Assembly: GCA_014305015.1 (NCBI GenBank)
Contig: JACRUB010000039.1
Span: 1 to 35,789, forward strand
Source: Vulcanimicrobiota bacterium
GTDB lineage: Bacteria > Vulcanimicrobiota > Vulcanimicrobiia > Vulcanimicrobiales > Vulcanimicrobiaceae
DNA: 35,789 nt
Reading direction: 5' to 3'
The stretch's first letter is position 1. Each line of letters starts with the position of its first letter. The position numbers were made by a program, and so were the translations under genes. A model generated the notes under the pieces. It was given only the letters and a program-made list of their open reading frames with translations, was not told where the DNA came from and did no database searches. Shown one piece after another: positions 24,691-35,789 of this stretch.

Positions 24691-26550
24691 TTAGAATTTG
24701 ACCGTGAAGTTTAGATCGGCGCGATTTTGCGTCAGGTTGTAATTTGGAACGAACGCGTCGCGATAGCGATACTGTTTGGCCGAAAAGGTAATGGCACTTG
24801 CCGTGTGCGGAATCGTATACGTCAAGTTTCCGAGATAGAAATCTTTACGTCCGTCGATGTTTTGATTCAAACTCGAGTACGACCCCGTGTAATACTGCGT
24901 ATTGTATTGGAGGCTCAAGCGCAGGTCATGACCGAGCGGCATGGCCGCGGCAGCGTTGAGCGAGCGCCGTGTGATGTTGACGAAGTTCGGATTGTAGGTT
25001 TGACCTAGGGCCGCCGGTGCGGTTGCAAATTGGCCGGGATCGGGTCCTTGCGCGTTGCCGTTGTACGGCAGGTACGTGAGCGCAGTCGAATCGTTGCGAT
25101 GCAGCTGCTCAAGCGACGCGCTGAGATCCAGACTGACCGGTCGTCCCAATGCGCGCAGATCAAAGCTTGCGCCGGCACTCAAGCTGTCTTGGGTTCCGCG
25201 CACTGCCGGATTGACGGTATAGGCGTTGGCCGCGAGTTCTTGCAGATGAGCAGCGCCGAAGTTTCCTTGAACTGTATACGCTCCAAGGCGGACCGGCGTA
25301 CTGAGGCTGACCTTGACGCCCTGGCTGTTGGGGACATAAGCGGCCGAGCCGGCACTCGCCCCATCGAAGGGTGTAAACGCGGGCGCCGACACAACAACGC
25401 TCGGGCCGGTTGCGGGGGTCGCGACATCACCAAAGAATCCGGCCGCCGATTGCACGCCGGCGGCAAAATTCGGCCCGACGGCTTGATACTGAATAGTGGC
25501 GGCCACCGAACGAACTTTGAATCGGATCCCCGCTACCAGCGCATTATCGATCTGCGGTTGGCTCGTGAACAAGAGCGCCGGTGCGGCGCCCGGGACGTAC
25601 CGGTTACTCGAAGCACTCGACGCCGCTTCGGCATAAAAAGACGAATGCCAGCGGCTACGCGCAAAGACCGGCACGGCAACGTCCATTCCGAAAACGGTAT
25701 TGCTCACAAGGCCGGAGACGGCCACACTCTGCGATGAATCAAAAAGATGATTGTATGTAACGCCGATGGTTGCACCGGGAGCGAACCGCAAATGGTGAAC
25801 CAGGCGTCCGGTCAGCACTTCGTGTTGCCCGAACTGGATGTAGCCGCCCTGCTCGGGAGTCACACGGAACGAAGCGCTTGTGAAGGAAGAGCCCGCAACA
25901 ATGTTCGCGGGACTTGCGTAGAGCGCATTTGCTTCCACGCGTGCAACCGAAAAGTAGAAATCACTCACGCCGCCAGCGGTTCCGGAAATCGAAACACCGT
26001 TCTGCACAGGTTGCAGCGGTGCGCGCGAATTTAGGGCCAAGCCGGCGACTCCGCCGGGCGCTGCTTGCAACGCGCCGATGCGTGCCGCAAGTCCGGTGAC
26101 CGCTCCGGCGCTGGGCAGGCTCAGCGTCAGGCTTGGTTCGAAGCCAAGACTGCTCCCGGCAAGAAGTTCGCCTGCGAGTGCGGCATGCTGCGTTTTTCGC
26201 GTCCGTGCCTCAAGCGAAGCGCGCAGTTTGGAAAGGTCGCTCTCGCGCACGCCGAGGGCATCCAGTTCGGGCCGGAATTCGGCGCTAAGCGCCTGAACGC
26301 GCGCCTCATCGGCGGCCGAGGCGCCCGACGCTTCGACTTTGGCAACGGCACGGGCGGTGAGAAGCGCCATCTCGTTTCGGGACAAACTCTTCTTATCGTT
26401 AAAAGCATCCGCGGGATAACCGTCGATCACGCGGTCGGCGATAAGCGTGCGTAAATCGGAGAGCGTCCGATCGGAGGGCGCGCTGGCCATGGCTGTGCCC
26501 TGCAGCGCCAGCAGCGCCGCCAGTGTAAGAACCCCGGCCAGACGTTTCAT
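24691..26550 (-). CDS. SLH-domain outer-membrane beta-barrel protein (OmpM/Slp-type OM-peptidoglycan tether and porin)
   Basis: Signal peptide MKRLAGVLTLAALLALQGTAMA. SLH motif LSDLRTLIADRVIDGYPADAFNDKKSLSRNEMALLTARAV, then a coiled-coil stalk (VQALSAEFRPELDALGVRESDLSKLRASLEAR). About 450 aa of alternating beta-strand pattern follow, ending in the OMP beta-signal ADLNFTVKF (terminal Phe). Start placed at ATG 26550; the ORF is open to 26646. Confidence 0.7.
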   Translation of the reverse strand: MKRLAGVLTLAALLALQGTAMASAPSDRTLSDLRTLIADRVIDGYPADAFNDKKSLSRNEMALLTARAVAKVEASGASAADEARVQALSAEFRPELDALGVRESDLSKLRASLEARTRKTQHAALAGELLAGSSLGFEPSLTLSLPSAGAVTGLAARIGALQAAPGGVAGLALNSRAPLQPVQNGVSISGTAGGVSDFYFSVARVEANALYASPANIVAGSSFTSASFRVTPEQGGYIQFGQHEVLTGRLVHHLRFAPGATIGVTYNHLFDSSQSVAVSGLVSNTVFGMDVAVPVFARSRWHSSFYAEAASSASSNRYVPGAAPALLFTSQPQIDNALVAGIRFKVRSVAATIQYQAVGPNFAAGVQSAAGFFGDVATPATGPSVVVSAPAFTPFDGASAGSAAYVPNSQGVKVSLSTPVRLGAYTVQGNFGAAHLQELAANAYTVNPAVRGTQDSLSAGASFDLRALGRPVSLDLSASLEQLHRNDSTALTYLPYNGNAQGPDPGQFATAPAALGQTYNPNFVNITRRSLNAAAAMPLGHDLRLSLQYNTQYYTGSYSSLNQNIDGRKDFYLGNLTYTIPHTASAITFSAKQYRYRDAFVPNYNLTQNRADLNFTVKF

Positions 26551-26681
26551 TGCTCCCCCGTGGAGTAAGTGAGGCAATTTCTTATATCGACAGAAACGCG
26601 CCCACGTTTCACGTTGTGAGGGCATTCCCATACTATTATGACCCACGCTGAGGGTATTCTAACGTACCCGATCGACTAATC

Positions 26682-27086
26682 TTAACCTTCCTCTAACCGG
26701 CCAAGGTAGCGGCGGGCGATTAGAACCGCTGCGTAGTCGTCGATCGGCCGTGGCGGCAACTGCATTCCCAGAGGAATGAGCCGTCGCCACCCCCGAGGTG
26801 GGTGGTCGGCAAAATAAAGGGCGCGCGCCTGGAGAGTCGTTTCGTGTTCATCCACCAGATGGACGGGCAATTTGAGCGACTCCAGCATCTGCCCAAGCGT
26901 GCCGGCGTGCGTCCCGTGACCAAGTGCCACTGCCCCGATATCGTACTGAGTGGAAAGTGCAGACATGCGTTCTATGAGGGTCTGGAGCGGTTCGATTCCC
27001 TGGGCGAGAGGCGGCGTCGCAGGGCCGTCTTTCACCAGCGCAAAGCCGGCTTTCTGAGTGCCCGGATCAATGCCGAGAACGATCAT
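26682..27086 (-). CDS. RNase H-fold YqgF/RuvX-like protein
   Basis: MIVLGIDPGTQKAGFALV (first acidic residue), VHLVDEHETTLQAR (the DE..TT motif of YqgF), IDDYAAVLIARRYL (C-terminal D..AA..I motif). The ATG overlaps the DUF3084 stop (ATGA). Confidence 0.5.
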   Translation of the reverse strand: MIVLGIDPGTQKAGFALVKDGPATPPLAQGIEPLQTLIERMSALSTQYDIGAVALGHGTHAGTLGQMLESLKLPVHLVDEHETTLQARALYFADHPPRGWRRLIPLGMQLPPRPIDDYAAVLIARRYLGRLEEG

Positions 27087-28018
27087 TTCGGACTGATCGA
27101 AATTGCGACGGGGATATACGTGAGATCGGGATAGACATCCCCAACCGAGGTCGCGGTAATCCGGTAGAGTCCGTGGCCGGCGAGATCGCGTTGAAGGACT
27201 TCCGCACTGGGACGGACGTCGGTAATCTTGACGTTCTGTGCGAAGACGAAAGGCATGCCGTTTTTAAGCGCGCCCTGGGTGATCAACTCTTCAAACTGAC
27301 TCAAAATAAACTGAACGTTGTTCGTCGGCGATGCCGGGACCACGAACGACGCGATCGTCACATTCCGCGGGAAGACAAGAATGTCGCGAATGGCCCGCAA
27401 CTCAAAATGGATCGGATCGTTCTGAAACAGATTCTGATCGGCGACCGCGATCATCACCACCTTCGACTGTATGAGTGCAGAGGTGAGGTCAAAGTTCGAA
27501 GCATTTTGGCGAATGAGCTGATCAACTTCTGATCTTGGCTTTTCGATCTTCTTGAGACCGCGCGGCACGAGCGATGCGTTTGCGAATGCTGCAACGTGAT
27601 CGTAGTATTGCCTTAAGGCAAGCATGCGGTCATTGACGGAAGCGTTCTGCGGGATGACAACGATTTCAGGACTTATGAGATCACCAACGCCGACAATCAC
27701 TTGCTCGTTGCGCGTATGGCGCTGCATTTCGTCGGCCTGAGCCTGAAGCTGCGTCACGCGAGTGCTGATCGCGTTGAGATGAAAGAAGGCGGTCTTTACG
27801 CTGTTGTTGGCAAACACCGCGCCCAGCGTGACGACGAGAGCGATGAGCATTCCCGTGCCGATCGCAACGATCGTTGAGGTATAGCGTGGGCGGATTCCAA
27901 ACAGCGAGAGGCGCTTGCGGCCAACTTGATGTCCGACGCGATCACCGACGTAGGCAATTGCTCCCGCGAGACACACGATGAAGAGCACGAGGAAGATGCC
28001 GCGTACCAGATCCCCCAT
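27083..28018 (-). CDS. DUF3084-like membrane protein
   Basis: TM1, then AYVGDRVGHQVGRKRLSLFGIRPRYTSTIVAIGTGMLIALVV, which matches the GDrlG..vGKkRLSLFgLRPr.T motif I associate with DUF3084. A coiled coil follows (VTQLQAQADEMQ), then a ~200-aa C-terminal domain. The start shares 1 nt with the lptF/G stop. Confidence 0.6.
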   Translation of the reverse strand: MGDLVRGIFLVLFIVCLAGAIAYVGDRVGHQVGRKRLSLFGIRPRYTSTIVAIGTGMLIALVVTLGAVFANNSVKTAFFHLNAISTRVTQLQAQADEMQRHTRNEQVIVGVGDLISPEIVVIPQNASVNDRMLALRQYYDHVAAFANASLVPRGLKKIEKPRSEVDQLIRQNASNFDLTSALIQSKVVMIAVADQNLFQNDPIHFELRAIRDILVFPRNVTIASFVVPASPTNNVQFILSQFEELITQGALKNGMPFVFAQNVKITDVRPSAEVLQRDLAGHGLYRITATSVGDVYPDLTYIPVAISISPK

Positions 28019-29163
28019 TACGTCGCCGCCGCCTTACGCAACCGTTGTGCTCCTAAAAAAGTGAAGAGCAGGTTGGGCAACCAGGCTGCAATCGGCGCCA
28101 GTCCCAGCGACGCATCGCCGACGAACGAAAAGACCGAAAGCACGACGTAGTAGACGAAGACGATCGCGACGGCGAGCCCGAAACCGATGCTCGCACTTCC
28201 GCCGCCGCGCGTCGCCCGCACGCCGAACGGAATGGCAATCAACATAAAAACGAAGCACGAAAACGGAAGCGCCAATTTTTGGTGATACGTTGCGGTATAT
28301 TTGCGTAGCTCGCTTTCATTGAGTTGCCCCGAGCGAATGATATCCGCAATCTGCGCGCGACTCATATCTTGCGGATTATCGTGCGTCGCCCGTTTGATCA
28401 ATTCAGTTGGCTTTTGTCCGATGTCAACCTGCGTGACGGGCACGGGCGGCTCGGAGTCAATTATCCCGTCCGGCGCGAACCGGTAGGTGCTCGCGTTCTC
28501 GAGCTGCCATCGCTCGGCGGTGAAAACCGCCCGGTCGGCAAAGAGAATCTGCGTTGGTTCGCCTTTCGCATTATATTGAATGAGGGTGACTTTAAGCAGA
28601 GCACCGGATTTGTCGATCGAACGCGCGACCGTCATCTGCCGCCCGCCGCCCGGAAGGGGCGCAGAGACGGTCAGGTCGCGGCTGAACGCACTTTGGTGTT
28701 TGATAACGTCGTTGAGCAGATATGTCTGCGCATCCGATGCGAGCGGCACGACCGCCTCTTGCAAGACTAGCATCACGAACGACATGAAGAGGCCGGCTAG
28801 CAACAGTGGTGCGATGATGCGCGTGAATGCGATTCCGCCCGCTTTCATCGCGATAATCTCGCTCTCTCCCGAGAGCCGTTGCATGGCAAGCAGCGTGCCG
28901 AGTAAGAGCGCCATCGGAATCGCGAGCACGAAGATGCCGGGCAGCGACCATAGGAAAAACACGATCGCAGCCCACAGCGGGGCATGTTCGGTCGCGACCA
29001 ATTTTTCGATGTTCAAAATGTCGGCCGCGGCCAAGATCAACGCGAACGCCGAAAGCCCGAAAAAAAACGTGCCCCCGAGCTCAGAGAGCATGTACCGGTC
29101 CAAAATCGCGGGAGGCCACAATTTCCAAACGGTGGCGGGCCGCTGCGCCATCTGAAAATGCAT
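28018..29163 (-). CDS. LptF/LptG-family LPS export permease
   Basis: N-terminal ILDRYMLSELGGTFFFGLSAFALIL signature of YjgP/YjgQ permeases. Three TM helices, a ~130-aa periplasmic beta-jellyroll insert, then three TM helices. The start shares 1 nt with the lptB stop. Confidence 0.8.
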   Translation of the reverse strand: MHFQMAQRPATVWKLWPPAILDRYMLSELGGTFFFGLSAFALILAAADILNIEKLVATEHAPLWAAIVFFLWSLPGIFVLAIPMALLLGTLLAMQRLSGESEIIAMKAGGIAFTRIIAPLLLAGLFMSFVMLVLQEAVVPLASDAQTYLLNDVIKHQSAFSRDLTVSAPLPGGGRQMTVARSIDKSGALLKVTLIQYNAKGEPTQILFADRAVFTAERWQLENASTYRFAPDGIIDSEPPVPVTQVDIGQKPTELIKRATHDNPQDMSRAQIADIIRSGQLNESELRKYTATYHQKLALPFSCFVFMLIAIPFGVRATRGGGSASIGFGLAVAIVFVYYVVLSVFSFVGDASLGLAPIAAWLPNLLFTFLGAQRLRKAAAT

Positions 29164-29912
29164 TACAGGCGGAAGCCTTCGCCTAAATAGAATTCGCGCG
29201 CAACCGGACTCTCGAGTACTTCCTGCGCGCTGCCGGAAACTTCGATCCGCCCGTTGTTCAGAATGTACGCGCGATCTACAATTGCGAGCGTTTCGCGCAC
29301 CTGGTGATCGGTGATGAGCACTCCCAGTCCACGATCGCGCAGCTGCCGAATCATCGTCTGAATATCCGCAACCGCAATTGGGTCGATACCCGTAAACGGT
29401 TCATCGAGCAAGAGAAATGCGGGTTCCGTGGCGATTGCTCGCGCGATTTCCACGCGCCGCCGTTCACCGCCCGAAAGACTGTCACCGCGCGCGTCGATAA
29501 ATTTGAGCAGTCCGAATTCTTCGAGCAACCCCGGCAAGCGTTCTTCTTGCTCGGCGCGCGGCACGCCGTTCATCTCCCAGATCAAACGGATGTTGTCGCC
29601 GACCGAGAGCTTTCGGAAGATGGAGTTTTCTTGCGCAAGATAGCCGATGCCGCGGCGGGCGCGCATGTACATCGGCGAGTTCGTGAGATCAATTTCCTGG
29701 GCTGCGTCATCGAGCAATACTGTTCCGGAATCCGGTTTGACCAGGCCGACCACCATATAAAATGTCGTGGTTTTTCCCGCGCCGTTCGGACCGAGCAATC
29801 CGACAACTTCACCCGTACTCACATCGGCGCGGACATGGTCGACCACAACACGTTCGCCGTAACGCTTGACCAAATCGCGCACGATTATACGGCGGTTGCG
29901 GCCATCGATCAT
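29163..29912 (-). CDS. lptB: LPS export ABC transporter ATP-binding protein LptB
   Basis: Walker A GLLGPNGAGKTTTFYM; Q-loop GIGYLAQENSIFRKLSV; signature LSGGERRRVEIARAI; Walker B FLLLDEPFTGIDP; H-loop VLITDHQVRE. Confidence 0.9.
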   Translation of the reverse strand: MIDGRNRRIIVRDLVKRYGERVVVDHVRADVSTGEVVGLLGPNGAGKTTTFYMVVGLVKPDSGTVLLDDAAQEIDLTNSPMYMRARRGIGYLAQENSIFRKLSVGDNIRLIWEMNGVPRAEQEERLPGLLEEFGLLKFIDARGDSLSGGERRRVEIARAIATEPAFLLLDEPFTGIDPIAVADIQTMIRQLRDRGLGVLITDHQVRETLAIVDRAYILNNGRIEVSGSAQEVLESPVAREFYLGEGFRL

Positions 29913-30466
29913 TGCATGTGCACCTGGGTGAGCCGCAGATCGCTTGTGAAGCTGCCGCCCGTGAGCGTATATCCGTCTTTAGAGGTGATATGCACGTTGC
30001 CCGTTCCGTGCAGTCTTCCGGTCGAGCGGTCGTATTCGAGCTGATCGCAGGTAAGCACGACTCCCTCTGAGGTGTGAGATTTGACGCCGCCTTGCATGAG
30101 CACGCTTTCCTTTGCGCGGTCTACGGTGGTTATCGGTGCATCACCGGTGAGCGTGGCCCCCGAGGTTGCGCCGTAAAACGTCACGTGCGTTTGCGCGAAC
30201 GTTCCGCGAAATTGGCTTTGTGATTGCAGTGTGGATTCGGTGGACTTTGCAGTGAGTTCGTAGAGCCGCCGATTGCCCTGCTTTTCAACGATACGGACCG
30301 GTTGGTTTGCGTTCCCGTGGCTGCGCACCGTAATCGGAGGCAGGCCGTTGCTCGCTGTGGGAGCGGCACTCGGCACGGACGTTTGCAGGGCCGAAGCATG
30401 CTGCGGCTTGGGACTGCACGCGCAGAACCCTGCGAGGAACAGAACCAGTCCCAAAGTGACGCGCAT
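29909..30466 (-). CDS. LptC/LptA-family (OstA-like beta-jellyroll) protein, probably a lipoprotein
   Basis: MRVTLGLVLFLAGFCACSPK is a signal peptide with Cys-containing lipobox-like end. The C-terminal strands LTCDQLEYDRSTGRLHGTGNVHITSKDGYTLTGGSFTSDL resemble LptC/LptA. It sits directly upstream of lptB with an ATGA overlap. Start placed at ATG 30466 rather than 30502. Confidence 0.5.
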   Translation of the reverse strand: MRVTLGLVLFLAGFCACSPKPQHASALQTSVPSAAPTASNGLPPITVRSHGNANQPVRIVEKQGNRRLYELTAKSTESTLQSQSQFRGTFAQTHVTFYGATSGATLTGDAPITTVDRAKESVLMQGGVKSHTSEGVVLTCDQLEYDRSTGRLHGTGNVHITSKDGYTLTGGSFTSDLRLTQVHMQ

Positions 30467-30471
30467 GTCCA

Positions 30472-31668
30472 CTATTCTACGAGCCCATCCTGAGCACAGC
30501 ATAAGGCGATCGCCATAAAAGGAAGCCAGAGTCCGAAGATAACGACGCTAACAGTATCGATCAGCCCTTGTACCCAAGTTCCGAGAAGTCCCGCCGCCAC
30601 TGCGAGGGCCAGGGTCGCGTTCGCACGATTCGTCGTAGCAAGCCGGGCCCGGAAGATCACGATAAAACGCCACCAAGCGAAGAGCACCGCCGCTATCCCC
30701 ACGATCCCGAGCTCCGCGGCAACTGTCAAAAGGAAGCTATGCGCGTGAAATGCCGTCGGTTCTCCATCAGGCAGACGAACGAACGGATAGATTTTTTCAA
30801 ACACAAACGGGCCGACACCGGTGAGTGGGAAACGCTCAAACATGAGAACGCCCGCCTGCCAGATCGAAAGCCGCGTGTAGTTTTCAGACGGATTGTGGTG
30901 ATAGTTGAAGACAAAGAGGACGGCGACGATTGCAGCGGCGATAATGCCGAGCGCCGAGCGGCCCCGCCACCGGCGCATCTGCGTAAAAACGAAAAACGCA
31001 ACCGCCACTGCCAGGCCCATCCAACCTGCGCGCGAGAAGGTCATCAAAAACGCTGGAATTCCCGCAGCAAGACCCGCGATCGCGAGAAGGCGCAAATCGC
31101 GGCGGGTCGTTACACGCGCGATTGCAAAGGCCAGCGGCAAATAGATGATTAAATAGCCGGCGAGTTCGCCGGGCAAAATGAATGTACCGATTGCGCGCCC
31201 ATGTCCCACCGTATACTCCGCCGCCGGTGTTTTTGTTAGAACCATAAGGATTGCAGCCAGAGCGGCAATCAGCCCCGAGGCGAGATACGCGCGATAGATC
31301 GCCGGAACGACGCCCGGCTCGCGATAAAAGCGCATGAGCAAAACGTGCCACAACACACTGAGACAAAAGATCGCGAGAAAGAGCGCTCCGGCAAGCGGAT
31401 CGAACCCCAGCAGCAAACTCAAGACCGATGCGCCGAGCCATACCATCAGCCCCAATAATGTAGGAACCGGCGCGCGCGGCGGCACGAGAGCGACTGCCAA
31501 TGCGTACACGGCAATAACCGCGACGAGGCCGAGCAGCCCTAATGCCAGTGAGTGCGGCAAGAGCGAAATACCCGGCACGGTGACCGCGGTAAGCGTAATG
31601 AACGACGGAAAAAGCGGCACGATAAAGAAAGTAAAGGCCAGTGTCGCGGGCAGGCCCCGTCTTAGCAT
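30472..31668 (-). CDS. O-antigen ligase/polymerase-like (Wzy_C domain) membrane protein
   Basis: Ten or more TM helices. FLMTFSRAGWMGLAVAVAFF and the periplasmic-loop motif FHAHSFLLTVAAELGIVG are typical of WaaL/Wzy_C. Confidence 0.75.
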   Translation of the reverse strand: MLRRGLPATLAFTFFIVPLFPSFITLTAVTVPGISLLPHSLALGLLGLVAVIAVYALAVALVPPRAPVPTLLGLMVWLGASVLSLLLGFDPLAGALFLAIFCLSVLWHVLLMRFYREPGVVPAIYRAYLASGLIAALAAILMVLTKTPAAEYTVGHGRAIGTFILPGELAGYLIIYLPLAFAIARVTTRRDLRLLAIAGLAAGIPAFLMTFSRAGWMGLAVAVAFFVFTQMRRWRGRSALGIIAAAIVAVLFVFNYHHNPSENYTRLSIWQAGVLMFERFPLTGVGPFVFEKIYPFVRLPDGEPTAFHAHSFLLTVAAELGIVGIAAVLFAWWRFIVIFRARLATTNRANATLALAVAAGLLGTWVQGLIDTVSVVIFGLWLPFMAIALCCAQDGLVE

Positions 31669-32810
31669 TGCACCACTTGGGCAATCTTCGCGGCAATGGC
31701 TGCAGAACCACCCGGTCCGCCCATCCGATCGCGTCCAATCCGTCCCATGGCAGCTCGCGTTCCCTCGTCATCGAGCAGCTTCTCGACTTCGGTTGCCGCA
31801 ACCGGAGGGTTGCCCGGGATCACCTTCATCGCCGCGCCGAGAAGACCACGCTGACGCATGCGATACCAACCATGTTGGCGCGCACCCGGCTCCTGGAATG
31901 CAATAACGGGAATACCGCTTGCGGCCGCGGCTTCGTTAGCCGTTCCCGCCTGGCCCAATACGAGTTTTGCACCCGAGAGCATCGCCCCCGGAGGCCCCGT
32001 CCATGCATGAACTATTGTCCGTCCGCTGCTGTGCAACACAAACGGGCAATGCGTGACCTCTGAGAGGCGCACGTCCCATCCATCCGCTCGTAACTCCTCA
32101 ATGAACCGCTGCGCGCTCAGTCCCGGTGCGATTGAAAGCGTTGCCCCGAGGAGCGGACGCCGCTTACTCAAGTCGCGAATCACCGCGCATAAAAACACTG
32201 CGTCGGAATAGGCCGCTTCGCGGCTGCCGGGAAAAATTGCAAGCCGCTCGTGGAACGGCGGAACGGAGGGATCCGTTTCGCTGAACAAATCTACTATCAC
32301 GTTCCCGGGAGCGAGCGCGAGCACGCCACGTTCGGTGAGGCGCTGCGCCGTCTGCAGATCGCGAACGAATACGGCATCTGTGTTGCGCAGTAAACGTTCT
32401 TCGAGCGTTCCGTACGGGGCGACATAGACGCTCTTTGCGGTACCGACGAAAATCGTTCGCGTTGCGCGCGCTTGTTGGGCCATCAACAGCGCAAAAATAT
32501 CGCCGACGGCTACCGCTGCGTCATACTGCCGGCGGCTCTTGCGCAAGAAGCCCAGTTGCGCAAGCGTGTGTGCAATTAAGCCACTGCGAAAATCGCGCAG
32601 GATGTTCCGCACGTTTCCCATCGCGATAAGGCCGCCGCTGGGCATCGCGCGGCGGGGACCCACTTGCCGCATAGTCGAGGGATGATTCGACTCACCAACT
32701 AACGCCAGATGGTCGCTTTGCACCTGGCAATGCAATTGCAGATCGCGCGCAAGACGAGCAGCAATTGCTTCTTCGCCGTGCCCATTGCTTACGAAAAGAA
32801 TGCGTTTCAT
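31662..32810 (-). CDS. Lipid-A-disaccharide-synthase-related GT-B protein (LpxB paralogue, TIGR03492-like)
   Basis: N-terminus MKRILFVSNGHGEEAIAARLARDL matches the SNGHGED start of the LpxB-related family. C-terminal GT-B half GQAGTANEAAAASGIPVIAF. ATGA overlap with the upstream phosphoesterase gene. Confidence 0.6.
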   Translation of the reverse strand: MKRILFVSNGHGEEAIAARLARDLQLHCQVQSDHLALVGESNHPSTMRQVGPRRAMPSGGLIAMGNVRNILRDFRSGLIAHTLAQLGFLRKSRRQYDAAVAVGDIFALLMAQQARATRTIFVGTAKSVYVAPYGTLEERLLRNTDAVFVRDLQTAQRLTERGVLALAPGNVIVDLFSETDPSVPPFHERLAIFPGSREAAYSDAVFLCAVIRDLSKRRPLLGATLSIAPGLSAQRFIEELRADGWDVRLSEVTHCPFVLHSSGRTIVHAWTGPPGAMLSGAKLVLGQAGTANEAAAASGIPVIAFQEPGARQHGWYRMRQRGLLGAAMKVIPGNPPVAATEVEKLLDDEGTRAAMGRIGRDRMGGPGGSAAIAAKIAQVVQC

Positions 32811-33532
32811 GCAGCCGGGAGCAGCGGCAGCAATTCGAAGTGCTCTATCTGCGCGCGGCCGCCGGCCGGATCGATTGCAATGTCCGTCGCCGAAACGTAT
32901 TTGCCATAAGGCCCCGCGTGTACGACCGGCACGCCGCCGATGAATTCCGGCTTGCTCAGCGTATCGTGACTATGTCCGCCGAGCAAGAGATCGATGCGCG
33001 GAACGGCCGCCGCGAGCTTTCGGTCGAGCGAGAGTCCGATGTGTGAGAGCACGATAAAGAGGTCGCCCGGCGCGACTCGCGCCGCGTGCGCCGCGATGAC
33101 CTCAGCCGGGTCCAAAAAGCGCCAGCCGAAAATATGTTCCCAGAAGCTGCCCTGCGGATACTGCATGATGAGCAACCCCGTCAGATAGACGTTGCCTTGC
33201 GGCGTGCTCATCCGTAAGTGATCGACGAACGGAAGCGCACGTCCCTTTAGATCCACGAGATTGGAACAAATCAGCGGATGATGCATTTTTGCCGCACGCG
33301 CTGCAAGCAATGTAAAGAGATAGTGGAATTCGCGATTGCCGATAGCTTGTGCGTCGTAGTGTGCGGCGTCTATTTCTGCAATGATCGGTTCGTCGCGATG
33401 GTAGACGGTTTGACTTCCACGTAGCGAATCGCCGCAATCGAAAAGCAGGCCCGGATGCGCCGAACGCAAGGCCGCGAGCGGCGCTATGATCCCGCGGTTA
33501 TTGTGCAAGTCGGAGGTGTGATAGATCCGCAT
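32807..33532 (-). CDS. Calcineurin-like metallophosphoesterase, UshA/5'-nucleotidase N-domain type, stand-alone
   Basis: All five metallophosphatase motifs are present: HTSDLH (DxH), CGDSLRG (GDxxxG), GNREFH (GNHE variant), LSHIG, GGHSHD. At 241 aa it lacks the 5'-nucleotidase C-terminal domain. Confidence 0.75.
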   Translation of the reverse strand: MRIYHTSDLHNNRGIIAPLAALRSAHPGLLFDCGDSLRGSQTVYHRDEPIIAEIDAAHYDAQAIGNREFHYLFTLLAARAAKMHHPLICSNLVDLKGRALPFVDHLRMSTPQGNVYLTGLLIMQYPQGSFWEHIFGWRFLDPAEVIAAHAARVAPGDLFIVLSHIGLSLDRKLAAAVPRIDLLLGGHSHDTLSKPEFIGGVPVVHAGPYGKYVSATDIAIDPAGGRAQIEHFELLPLLPAA

Positions 33533-34638
33533 TACGAGCGCGCGAGCGCCACGGCGAACGCGGCAGATTGCTCCAGCACCTCAGCCGGTCCCAGAGCGGC
33601 TCGTAAACCGAGCAGCTCTTCATATTGCGTCTCGGGACTGAGTAAAACGGATTCCATCTCTCTGGAAAGCGCATCCGCCGTAACATCTTCCTGCAAGAGT
33701 TCGGGAACGACCCGCTTCTTGAGCACGAGATTGGGAATGGTGATATGCGGCCCGGAATAGATACGGCGCGCTATTCTTGCCTGCGCTTGTGAGAGGACAT
33801 AAAACGCAATCGCGGGCACGCCGGTGAGCGCGCTCTCCAGCACGGCAGTCCCCGAGGCAACCCATGCGGCATCCGCTTGCGCGATCGCCGCCTGCGCCGA
33901 TTGAACAATGGTGAGGCCGGATAGCGTGCGGCGCTCGAGTTCAGCGCCAATCATTTGCTCGCCGGCGCGATCCGCCGCGCCGAGGATCGCTTTCAAGTTC
34001 GGACGCCGCGCGCGAAGCTGGACGTAGGCATCTAGCAAAACGGGGAGATGGCGTTTGATTTCCCCTGCGCGGCTGCCCGGCAAAATCGCAATCGTTCCGC
34101 CATCGCGCGGGGGCGCCGGACGCGGCGGGCGCATCGTGTATGCGGGCGCTAAGGGATGTCCAAAAAAGTGCACCGGCAACCCGTGCTTGGTGTAAAAATC
34201 ACGCTGATGTTCGAAGGCCACGAGCGGAACGCTGAGCTCCGCAACGGCTTGTGCCTGTTGCGGTTTGTCGAGCCATGCGCCGGGCGGAAAGAAATACAGG
34301 ATCGGCCGGCGGTACCCGATGCGGCGCAGCGTCTTAGCTAAACGCATGTGCACCGCGCCGAAATCGACGACCACAATGAGATCGGGTGGATTCTTTTTTA
34401 AGCGCAGAGCATTGCGCCACATGATCAGCCAGAGTTTTGGAACGTTCATGAGCGCTTCAAAGATGCCCATCGTGCTCCAGCCGCGCGTATGATTCCACAG
34501 TTTAACGCCCTGCTCGCGCATCCGGTCGCCCCCGATCCCTTCGAAATGCGCATCCGGATCGAGGTCTGCAATAGCACGGGCGAGCGATGTGGCGCTCACT
34601 TCACCGGACGCTTCGCCGGTTGAGAAGAAATAGCGCAA
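33532..34638 (-). CDS. lpxB: Lipid-A-disaccharide synthase LpxB
   Basis: MRYFFSTGEASGEVSATSLARAI (the GEaSGD motif), IGGDRMREQGV, DLIVVVDFGAVHMRLAK, YFFPPGAWL, GTAVLESALTGVPAIAFY. Confidence 0.85.
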   Translation of the reverse strand: MRYFFSTGEASGEVSATSLARAIADLDPDAHFEGIGGDRMREQGVKLWNHTRGWSTMGIFEALMNVPKLWLIMWRNALRLKKNPPDLIVVVDFGAVHMRLAKTLRRIGYRRPILYFFPPGAWLDKPQQAQAVAELSVPLVAFEHQRDFYTKHGLPVHFFGHPLAPAYTMRPPRPAPPRDGGTIAILPGSRAGEIKRHLPVLLDAYVQLRARRPNLKAILGAADRAGEQMIGAELERRTLSGLTIVQSAQAAIAQADAAWVASGTAVLESALTGVPAIAFYVLSQAQARIARRIYSGPHITIPNLVLKKRVVPELLQEDVTADALSREMESVLLSPETQYEELLGLRAALGPAEVLEQSAAFAVALARS

Positions 34639-34646
34639 GCCCGCGC

Positions 34647-35414
34647 CTACTTCAAGATGCCGCGGTCGGAGTCGGCTTGGAGAAACGCAATGAGATCGCG
34701 GCCCGCTTGCGTCTTGACCGTCGCTTCCATTTCCTGAAGTGCTTGCGAAAGATTGCGCTTTGATCCGTAAATTAAACGGTAAAAGGCTTTGAGTTCCGCG
34801 ATATCCTCAGCAGAGAAGCCCGCGCGCTTTAAGCCTGCGCTATTGAGGCCGTACGTTTTCGGCGGATTGCCGTCGCACAAAAAAAACGGCGGCAAATCGC
34901 GCGAGAGCTTTGAGAATCCGCCGACGAACGCATACTTACCGACGCGCACGAATTGATGCATGCCCACCATGCCGCCGATGCCGGCATAATCGTCAACCAC
35001 GACGTGGCCCGCCAACTGCGCGAGGTTGCTCATGGTCACGCCGTTTCCGACACGGCAATTGTGCGCGACATGCCCGTAGGCTAGCAGCAAACAATCATCC
35101 CCGATTGAAGTGATTTCTTCTTCGCCGGTAGCACGCTGCACGCTCACATATTCTCGCAGCACCGTTCGGTCGCCGATCGTGGTATACGCGCGTTCGCCCT
35201 TATATTTGCGGTCTTGCGACGTGCTTCCAATCGTAGCGAACGGATAAATCTGGCAGTCTTCGCCGATGGTCGTGTGTCCATTCACCACAACGTTTGCCTG
35301 GAGTACCGTTCCACGTCCGATCTTCACGTGTTCGCCGACTAAGCAGAACGGACCGATCTCAACACCGCGAGCGAGCTGCGCATTCGGGTGAACGACTGCC
35401 GTAGGGTGAATCAC
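34647..35414 (-). CDS. lpxA: Acyl-ACP--UDP-GlcNAc O-acyltransferase LpxA
   Basis: MIHPTAVVHPNAQLARGVEIGPFCLVGEHVKIGRGTVLQANVVVNGHTTIGEDCQIYPFATIGS hexapeptide repeats. Also QDRKYKGE, HVAHNCRVGNGV and a C-terminal helical domain. The start overlaps the fabZ stop. Confidence 0.9.
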   Translation of the reverse strand: MIHPTAVVHPNAQLARGVEIGPFCLVGEHVKIGRGTVLQANVVVNGHTTIGEDCQIYPFATIGSTSQDRKYKGERAYTTIGDRTVLREYVSVQRATGEEEITSIGDDCLLLAYGHVAHNCRVGNGVTMSNLAQLAGHVVVDDYAGIGGMVGMHQFVRVGKYAFVGGFSKLSRDLPPFFLCDGNPPKTYGLNSAGLKRAGFSAEDIAELKAFYRLIYGSKRNLSQALQEMEATVKTQAGRDLIAFLQADSDRGILK

Positions 35415-35789
35415 GCATGCAGCACGGTGGCATCATAACCAAACAAGCGCGGATCGCTTGCGATTGAAAACATGAGATCGCCCGAACACACCAGCTGATC
35501 GTTGACTTTTGCCGTCGCTTTTATCCACCCAATGTTTTTGCGGATTTTGACGACGATGGTTTCCATCATCAAACAGTCGCCGGGAACAACCGGGCGCCGA
35601 AACTTTACTTTGTCGATGCCGGCAAGGTATGGCGTCTTGCGAGAGAATTCGCCGGGCTCCAGCACCGTCGTACCGCCGAGTTGCGCGAGGGCCTCGATCA
35701 TGTAGACGCCTGGAAAGAGCGGATTGCCCGGAAAATGCCCGGTGAAGACCGGCTCGTTGAAGGTGATATTCTTGTAGCCGAGTGCGCGC
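35411..35789 (-). CDS. fabZ: 3-hydroxyacyl-ACP dehydratase FabZ (5' end outside the window)
   Basis: Extending the frame beyond the listed 96-aa ORF gives ...LGYKNITFNEPVFTGHFPGNPLFPGVYMIEALAQLGG. This is the FabZ hot-dog active-site motif (GHFPxxPxxPGV..iEa.AQ). Confidence 0.85.
   Translation of the reverse strand, partial: RALGYKNITFNEPVFTGHFPGNPLFPGVYMIEALAQLGGTTVLEPGEFSRKTPYLAGIDKVKFRRPVVPGDCLMMETIVVKIRKNIGWIKATAKVNDQLVCSGDLMFSIASDPRLFGYDATVLHA

Follow-up and report, generated by a model that had tools for sequence, protein, structure and literature searches.

In the Raetz pathway of lipid A synthesis, a single step is not universal, the formation of lipid X from UDP-2,3-diacylglucosamine (UDP, uridine diphosphate). 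Three enzymes are known for this step, namely LpxH, LpxI and LpxG, with no others named in a 2025 review, while several diderm lineages have been described with lpxA, lpxC, lpxD and lpxB only. The only metallophosphoesterase steps of the pathway named in the literature are those of LpxH and LpxG, both UDP-diacylglucosamine hydrolases. The replacement of the motif III histidine by arginine (GNRD) has been known only in LpxH, which is fully active with it; this residue, Arg80, forms a bidentate salt bridge to the phosphate of lipid X, i.e., the beta-phosphate of the substrate (PMC5016852). LpxG of Chlamydia (Ct461) is a 37 kDa protein that has a transmembrane helix at its N-terminus and carries GNHD; its sequence has little similarity to those of LpxH and LpxI, and what led to its discovery was the “missing” step (PMC4807358). 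The three enzymes attack different phosphates, and in diderm Firmicutes LpxI is encoded in an lpxACDIBK operon. Here, a DNA stretch of 35,789 nt from a Vulcanimicrobiota bacterium (contig JACRUB010000039.1; the whole stretch is referred to as the window) was analyzed. On its minus strand, at positions 32807..33532, it carries a gene with an ATG start for a stand-alone 5'-nucleotidase-type metallophosphoesterase of 241 amino acid residues, a member of a clade of short proteins with the motif GNRE. Based on motifs, predicted fold and gene neighborhood, the best single explanation is that this gene would encode a UDP-2,3-diacylglucosamine pyrophosphatase (the LpxH step) derived from the 5'-nucleotidase/UshA branch, to which we assign a probability of about 45%.

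The translated protein contains the motifs SDLH (residues 7-10), CGDSLRG (33-39), GNREFH (65-70), LSHIG (162-166) and GGHSHD (185-190). The DLH of motif I (33503..33511, minus strand), which provides the metal ligands Asp8 and His10, is invariant across the family, and motif III is encoded at 33323..33340 (minus strand), with the Arg67 codon CGC at 33334-33332. In 39 aligned sequences, D8, H10, D35, N66, R67, E68, H164, H187 and H189 were unchanged. The full set of metal ligands (D8, H10, D35, N66, H164, H187 and H189) is kept, and the catalytic His-Asp dyad of GNHEFD is replaced, with Arg67 in place of the histidine and His70 in place of the aspartate (GNREFH). In the sequence match to the PDB entry of CD73, Arg67 aligned with the histidine of GNHEF.

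Profile searches against Pfam gave a borderline match to Metallophos (21.7 bits) and a match to Metallophos_2, with nothing else reported, and PF02872, the C-terminal domain of 5'-nucleotidases, was not matched in the 241-residue protein. Among the NCBIfam models, only the N-terminal halves of those for SoxB, UshA-like proteins, CpdB and 5'-nucleotidase matched, far under their cut-offs. The best matches in the PDB sequence search were CD73 and snake-venom 5'-nucleotidases (E of about 1e-7). An AlphaFold2 model built with 39 homologs had a mean predicted local distance difference test score of 89 and a predicted template modeling (TM) score of 0.90, and between motifs III and IV it showed short helices and strands as in the N-domain of 5'-nucleotidases. 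When this model was compared with known structures by Foldseek, the best matches were YunD (9a7h), E. coli UshA (1ush), CD73 and CpdB-type N-domains, with TM scores of 0.75-0.83 on the query and 0.37-0.58 on the target. For UshA and CD73, the target-side score was 0.37-0.45, since the query was covered whole and only about 40% of the target was. Together with the missing C-domain match, this coverage identifies the protein as the catalytic N-domain alone of the 5'-nucleotidase/UshA type. The protein begins MRIYHTSDLH, with the DxH motif starting at residue 8, and has no hydrophobic N-terminus or signal sequence; likewise, all 39 aligned homologs begin within three residues of motif I. It is accordingly predicted from its sequence to be a cytoplasmic single-domain protein. 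The homologs, the invariant residues and the confident AlphaFold2 model establish that the gene is real.

The gene lies directly downstream of lpxB, which encodes lipid-A-disaccharide synthase (33532..34638, minus strand; PF02684, 223 bits; TIGR00215, 177.7 bits), and directly upstream of a gene for a TIGR03492 “lipid-A-disaccharide synthase-related” glycosyltransferase (31662..32810, minus strand), which at 210.8 bits just missed the cut-off of 219.2 and was only marginally similar to LpxB itself by sequence comparison. The lpxB stop codon TAA (33534-33532) and the phosphoesterase start codon ATG (33532-33530) have base 33532 in common (TAATG), and the phosphoesterase stop codon TGA (32809-32807) overlaps the ATG of the TIGR03492 gene (32810-32808) in the sequence ATGA. 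An earlier sequence-only reading of the window had reported the 241-aa open reading frame (ORF), both junctions, the position between lpxB and an LpxB-related gene, the five motifs and the restriction to a catalytic N-domain, and each of these was borne out. Its statement that LpxH itself has arginine for histidine in GNRD was also correct (PMC5016852), so that the same change occurs here as GNRE. It had further held that the phosphoesterase is co-translated with the lipid A enzymes. The overlaps are present, and co-translation may be deduced from them, but they are not special to this gene: all nine junctions from lpxB to a weak RuvX-like ORF (26682-34638) overlap by 1-31 nt each, and the gap between lpxA and lpxB is 8 nt. 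Since nearly every junction overlaps, the codon overlap characterizes the operon as a whole rather than the phosphoesterase gene alone, and the genes from lpxB to the ruvX-like ORF would form one long translationally coupled string.

To place the protein among its relatives, homologs were collected in several searches. In the first, 1684 homologs were found at E ≤ 1e-3; the best 120 were 64-93% identical, and the named ones in these best 120 of 1684 were from Eremiobacterota (Vulcanimicrobiaceae/Baltobacteraceae-like), the group to which the source organism of the window also belongs. A HMMER search of 1.84 billion representatives gave 5476 relatives, and the best 150 of these were surveyed for motifs and length. 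Of the 70 proteins that were 225-290 aa long, 68 carried GNRE, the two exceptions being P0141, which is frameshifted, and P0215 (243 aa, GNHE). The longer relatives with a detectable motif III, in a count that leaves out apparent fusions and frameshifted ORFs, carried GNH[ED], apart from two with GNQE/GNNE. In a neighbor-joining tree, the short proteins and the N-domains of the long proteins fell into separate groups, with a bootstrap value of 82/100. The resulting 70-member clade comprises the window protein, 68 GNRE representatives and P0215, P0141 not being in the tree. GNRE is found in 69 of the 70 members, and P0215, the sole member with GNHE, may be an intermediate or a reversion. Identity inside the clade falls to about 30%, and the metal ligands and, with P0215 aside, GNRE are invariant throughout. 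The window protein falls within this clade in its length (225-290 aa), its single domain, its GNRE motif and its monophyly with the short proteins as against the two-domain relatives.

The clade has a narrow distribution. Named matches in a profile search came from Armatimonadota and Eremiobacterota only, and when GTDB species genomes were scanned with a 12-sequence family alignment, the short GNR[ED] proteins among the matches listed were confined to Eremiobacterota (including Xenobia), Armatimonadota and three further metagenome-assembled genomes (MAGs). The apparent homologs from other phyla (Deltaproteobacteria, Bacteroidales, Planctomycetota, Paenibacillus and others) were all long two-domain GNH[ED] 5'-nucleotidases and were rejected as lying outside the clade. 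Public annotations of clade proteins read “hypothetical”, “metallophosphatase” or “2',3'-cyclic-nucleotide 2'-phosphodiesterase”, and no publication was found that describes either this clade or a fourth class of UDP-diacylglucosamine hydrolase. The clade is previously unnamed. Within the 5'-nucleotidase superfamily the window protein is atypical, as it lacks three features that define the family, namely the C-domain, the His-Asp dyad and export.

The window protein was then compared with the enzymes of the lipid X step and with its structural relatives. LpxH (TIGR01854-type; PDB 5B49, 5K8K and 8QJZ) is, like the window protein, a cytoplasmic binuclear-metal metallophosphoesterase of about 240 aa with a GNR(D/E) motif, and both have a link to lipid A synthesis, through either their gene context or their pathway. 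When the family alignment was aligned with E. coli LpxH by hhalign, the match was not significant overall (probability 0.45%, E 0.13); the same alignment put DLH, GD, GNRE/GNRD (GNREF on GNRDF) and GHxH in register. The LpxH model gave no NCBIfam match at E ≤ 0.01. The two proteins thus differ in lacking family-level homology, in the 5'-nucleotidase N-domain without a helical lid found here, and in motif V, which is GGHSH here and HGHTH in LpxH. LpxG differs from the soluble, 241-residue GNRE protein in its size, membrane helix and GNHD motif; if the proposed function is correct, each of the two would be a calcineurin-like phosphoesterase that was recruited independently to this step. LpxI (PF06230/PF17930) occupies a similar slot next to lpxB in many bacteria, but it has an unrelated fold and a different chemistry. 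LpxI is metal-independent. Neither LpxI_N nor LpxI_C was matched in the window protein by Pfam, and no LpxI similarity was seen with Pfam or NCBIfam. On these comparisons the protein is placed outside the LpxH, LpxI and LpxG families. The best sequence and structure matches, with the same arrangement of metal ligands, are UshA, 5'-nucleotidase and CD73 (PF00149 plus PF02872), SoxB and CpdB. UshA cleaves UDP-sugars to uridine monophosphate (UMP) and sugar-1-phosphate, which is the same type of bond as in the lipid X step. However, these relatives are exported two-domain proteins with a nucleotide-binding C-domain and a His-Asp dyad, whereas the window protein has none of these and carries the Arg-His pair instead.

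The gene neighborhood was analyzed in relatives. In the Eremiobacterota loci close to the window, lpxB was directly upstream in 11 of the 11 with upstream sequence, and the TIGR03492 gene was directly downstream in 12 of 12. In the closed genome of a relative (L001, 2.96 Mb), the phosphoesterase gene is part of the supercluster tamB-bamA-skp(x3)-lpxD-lpxC-fabZ-lpxA-lpxB-phosphoesterase-TIGR03492-wzyC-lptC-lptB-lptFG-DUF3084. In eight divergent loci (34-38% identity), the TIGR03492 gene was directly downstream in all eight, and lpxB was located within 4 kb upstream in seven. The earlier observation that the cluster holds no LpxH-, LpxI- or LpxG-like gene was extended: Pfam and NCBIfam searches revealed no such gene, and no second metallophosphoesterase, in the 35.8-kb window, and none of lpxH, lpxI, LpxG-like, lpxK, waaA and kds genes was present in the 20-kb cluster of the closed relative. 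In Armatimonadota, the phosphoesterase gene follows kdsD and/or kdsC in nine loci. A gene for a LIC_10190-like membrane protein comes next in seven of the nine, with an overlap in L002 and L003, and a polyprenyl-phosphate-sugar-synthase-like GT2 gene then follows in both loci with full gene tables. In these two (L002, 8866-13223; L003, 8433-13205), the order is kdsD-(kdsC)-phosphoesterase-LIC_10190-like 600-aa membrane protein-GT2 (AglJ/ArnC-like), which looks like an operon for the synthesis of 3-deoxy-D-manno-octulosonate (Kdo) and for lipid A/core decoration. Both conserved contexts, the Eremiobacterota-type and that of Armatimonadota, are contexts of lipopolysaccharide (LPS) synthesis.

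In the proposed reaction, a metal-bridged hydroxide would attack the alpha-phosphate of UDP-2,3-diacylglucosamine, and UMP would be the leaving product. Arg67, at the usual place of the catalytic histidine, would hold and neutralize the departing sugar-1-phosphate, by analogy with Arg80 of LpxH. The product would be lipid X, which LpxB, encoded directly upstream, would join to a second molecule of UDP-2,3-diacylglucosamine. We infer the substrate, the role of Arg67 and the lack of any other enzyme for the step in these genomes. An arginine would be a poor general acid and a good ligand for a departing phosphate, which favors a nucleotide-diphosphate substrate over a monoester. The lipid X step of the Raetz pathway happens at the cytoplasmic face of the membrane, and a protein that lacks a signal peptide, unlike UshA, CD73 and SoxB, fits this location. 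Vulcanimicrobium, a cultured relative, possesses an outer membrane, and 3-OH iso-C13/C14 fatty acids are abundant in it, which fits with lipid A being made; the papers on Eremiobacterota and Vulcanimicrobium give no lpx inventory. Given the LPS contexts, the precedent of LpxH and LpxG, the arginine and the predicted cytoplasmic location, an LpxH analog with a convergent change from histidine to arginine would be the most economical explanation.

Several observations weigh against this assignment. Of the structure checks suggested in the sequence-only reading, the search for an acyl-chain cap turned out negative: the AlphaFold2 model is a minimal 5'-nucleotidase N-domain and shows no helical lipid lid of the LpxH type, and LpxH was not among the 50 Foldseek matches listed, which were 5'-nucleotidases, CpdB-type proteins and YunD. 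If the substrate is lipidic, its recognition could need a partner protein. The arginine is suggestive and not diagnostic, because LpxG performs the same reaction with GNHD (PMC4807358). In six Fimbriimonadales loci and one MAG, the neighbors of the gene are unrelated to LPS; those in Fimbriimonadales include trpC, DUF1385 and ccmB-type genes. No cyanobacterial member of the clade was present among the matches listed in the HMMER, profile and GTDB scans. Since cyanobacteria have been reported without LpxH, another, possibly shared, solution to the step may exist. In addition, the most constant neighbor of the gene is that for TIGR03492 and not lpxB. The former is directly downstream in 19 of 19 Eremiobacterota-type loci and also in L088, where the phosphoesterase-TIGR03492 pair stands alone with no lpx gene nearby, and the two are joined in P0156, a single in-frame phosphoesterase-TIGR03492 fusion of 650 aa (TIGR03492 part, 305 bits). 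The earlier claim of a missing LpxH analog was therefore upheld in part: the sequence, the arginine and the LPS linkage agree with it, and the absent lid, the tighter tie to TIGR03492 and the Fimbriimonadales loci do not. The same holds for the synteny that the claim called for, as the link to lpxB was found in Eremiobacterota and a link to LPS genes in Armatimonadota.

The constancy of the TIGR03492 gene leads to a serious alternative, which we rate as less probable than the pyrophosphatase, namely that the phosphoesterase and the glycosyltransferase form a two-enzyme module acting at a different lipid A/LPS step. The phosphoesterase could then possibly cleave the pyrophosphate of a UDP-linked substrate or product of TIGR03492, or it could dephosphorylate lipid X or the disaccharide 1-phosphate in the cytoplasm, giving a phosphate-poor lipid A. 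Besides the conserved adjacency, with or without lpx genes nearby, the natural fusion speaks for such a module, as the other genes on its contig are intact; still, it is one sequence on one contig. This contig is of low GC content, and the best named matches of its RecA are “Firmicutes bacterium” MAGs (76% identical). In Armatimonadota, the large membrane protein and the polyprenyl-phosphate-sugar-synthase-like GT2 are partners typical of lipid A/core decoration, which would also suit a later step, but no TIGR03492 gene lies beside these orthologs. Cyanobacteria point both ways. Their LPS has been reported to lack phosphate and Kdo, in line with the second option. Cyanobacteria carry TIGR03492, yet the clade was not represented in them among the matches listed. 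Finally, the arginine also speaks against the module, since at the position of the general-acid histidine it would be better suited to a leaving group that is a phosphate than to a monoester. TIGR03492 itself could add the first core sugar or act as a second disaccharide synthase.

Five apparent LpxB-phosphoesterase fusions (P0126, P0143, P0149, P0155 and P0258) were also considered and were rejected as frameshift artifacts, not Rosetta-stone evidence. The contig of P0258 contains many split genes, which indicates indel errors, and others match the phosphoesterase only in part. Such fusion-like proteins come from indel-rich assemblies, as at L086 (contig ERZ25039590:contig_110512), with lpxD, lptB and further genes broken up. 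The TIGR03492 partner was located at 31662-32810 (minus strand) in the window; the regions concerned are 8001-9953 in L085 and 8001-9956 in L088.

It is improbable that the protein is instead a general cytoplasmic nucleotide/UDP-sugar pyrophosphatase or nucleotidase, which might clear UDP or UDP-sugars and whose position in an LPS operon would be incidental or regulatory. Its nearest relatives by sequence and fold are indeed broad-specificity 5'-nucleotidases and UDP-sugar hydrolases, no obvious lipid-binding element was seen in the AlphaFold2 model, and the Fimbriimonadales members adjoin genes such as trpC. However, the protein lacks the C-terminal nucleotide-binding domain that confers specificity, two phyla strictly conserve its location inside LPS operons although the neighbors differ between them, and the clade-wide change of the dyad argues for a new, specific substrate. 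A dead or regulatory protein of the metallophosphoesterase fold, which might serve LpxB or TIGR03492 as a membrane scaffold, would account for the replacement of GNHEFD by GNREFH and for the tight coupling to two glycosyltransferase genes, but it is very improbable, given that none of the seven metal-ligand positions varies even among sequences of about 30% identity and that LpxH is fully active with the same arginine (PMC5016852).

Returning to the proposed pyrophosphatase, a wider reading that joins all of these elements is held more tentatively than the assignment of the reaction alone. The clade may represent a fourth class of UDP-2,3-diacylglucosamine pyrophosphatase that arose independently, in which an exported 5'-nucleotidase would have lost its signal peptide and C-domain and acquired a convergent LpxH-type change from histidine to arginine. 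Eremiobacterota and Armatimonadota, two phyla of Terrabacteria diderms in which the Raetz pathway would otherwise be incomplete, would obtain their lipid X from this class, which might form a complex with LpxB or TIGR03492 as the missing substrate-binding domain. If this is true, the pathway would be completed by a fourth solution in two phyla that are widespread in soil and freshwater, and metallophosphoesterases would have been recruited to the lipid X step independently for a third time. It would also be a clean case of a convergent active-site change inside one superfamily. The gene could then also serve as an annotation marker for LPS capacity in MAGs, and attention would be drawn to the uncharacterized TIGR03492 glycosyltransferase.

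The remaining genes of the window cluster, all on the minus strand, are arranged in the order fabZ(partial)-lpxA-lpxB-phosphoesterase-TIGR03492-wzyC-lptC-lptB-lptF/G-DUF3084-ruvX-like. The 3' part of fabZ (35411..35789) runs past the window edge, as its match to the FabA-like profile PF07977 begins at position 55 of the profile, and is followed by lpxA (34647..35414; NF003657, 342 bits). Downstream of the TIGR03492 gene are a gene for a Wzy_C/O-antigen-ligase-like membrane protein (30472..31668; PF04932, 73 bits) and the genes of the LPS export system (28018..30502), comprising lptC (29909-30502), lptB (29163-29912) and lptF/G (28018-29163). Near the end of the overlapping string lie the gene for a DUF3084 protein (27083..28018), identified by a profile match, and the RuvX-like ORF (26682..27086), which at 28.8 bits narrowly missed its cut-off (29.2).

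In divergent relatives, a DegT aminotransferase and/or a GFO_IDH oxidoreductase gene (GnnB/GnnA-like) was found between fabZ and lpxA (L004, 5290-7457; L087, 3421-5582; L085, 4399-5403, oxidoreductase only), which suggests a lipid A backbone based on 2,3-diamino-2,3-dideoxyglucose (GlcN3N) in those lineages. Divergent Eremiobacterota-type clusters also have a conserved ORF between lpxD and lpxC (L004, 2207-4021; L087, 384-2156); it is about 600 aa long and matched nothing in Pfam or NCBIfam. The DUF3084 gene (27083-28018 in the window) closes the LPS/Lpt cluster in the Eremiobacterota-labeled loci that include the region. The DUF3084 family is otherwise typical of cyanobacteria, and such shared features reinforce the cyanobacteria-like style of the envelope cluster. 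Beyond the string, at 24691-26646 (minus strand), a 651-aa ORF was found that gave no Pfam match even at E ≤ 1. An internal methionine (MKRLAGVLTLAALLALQGTAMA) gives it a signal peptide, its C-terminal end is ...NFTVKF, and it may encode an outer-membrane beta-barrel or an OmpM-like tether.

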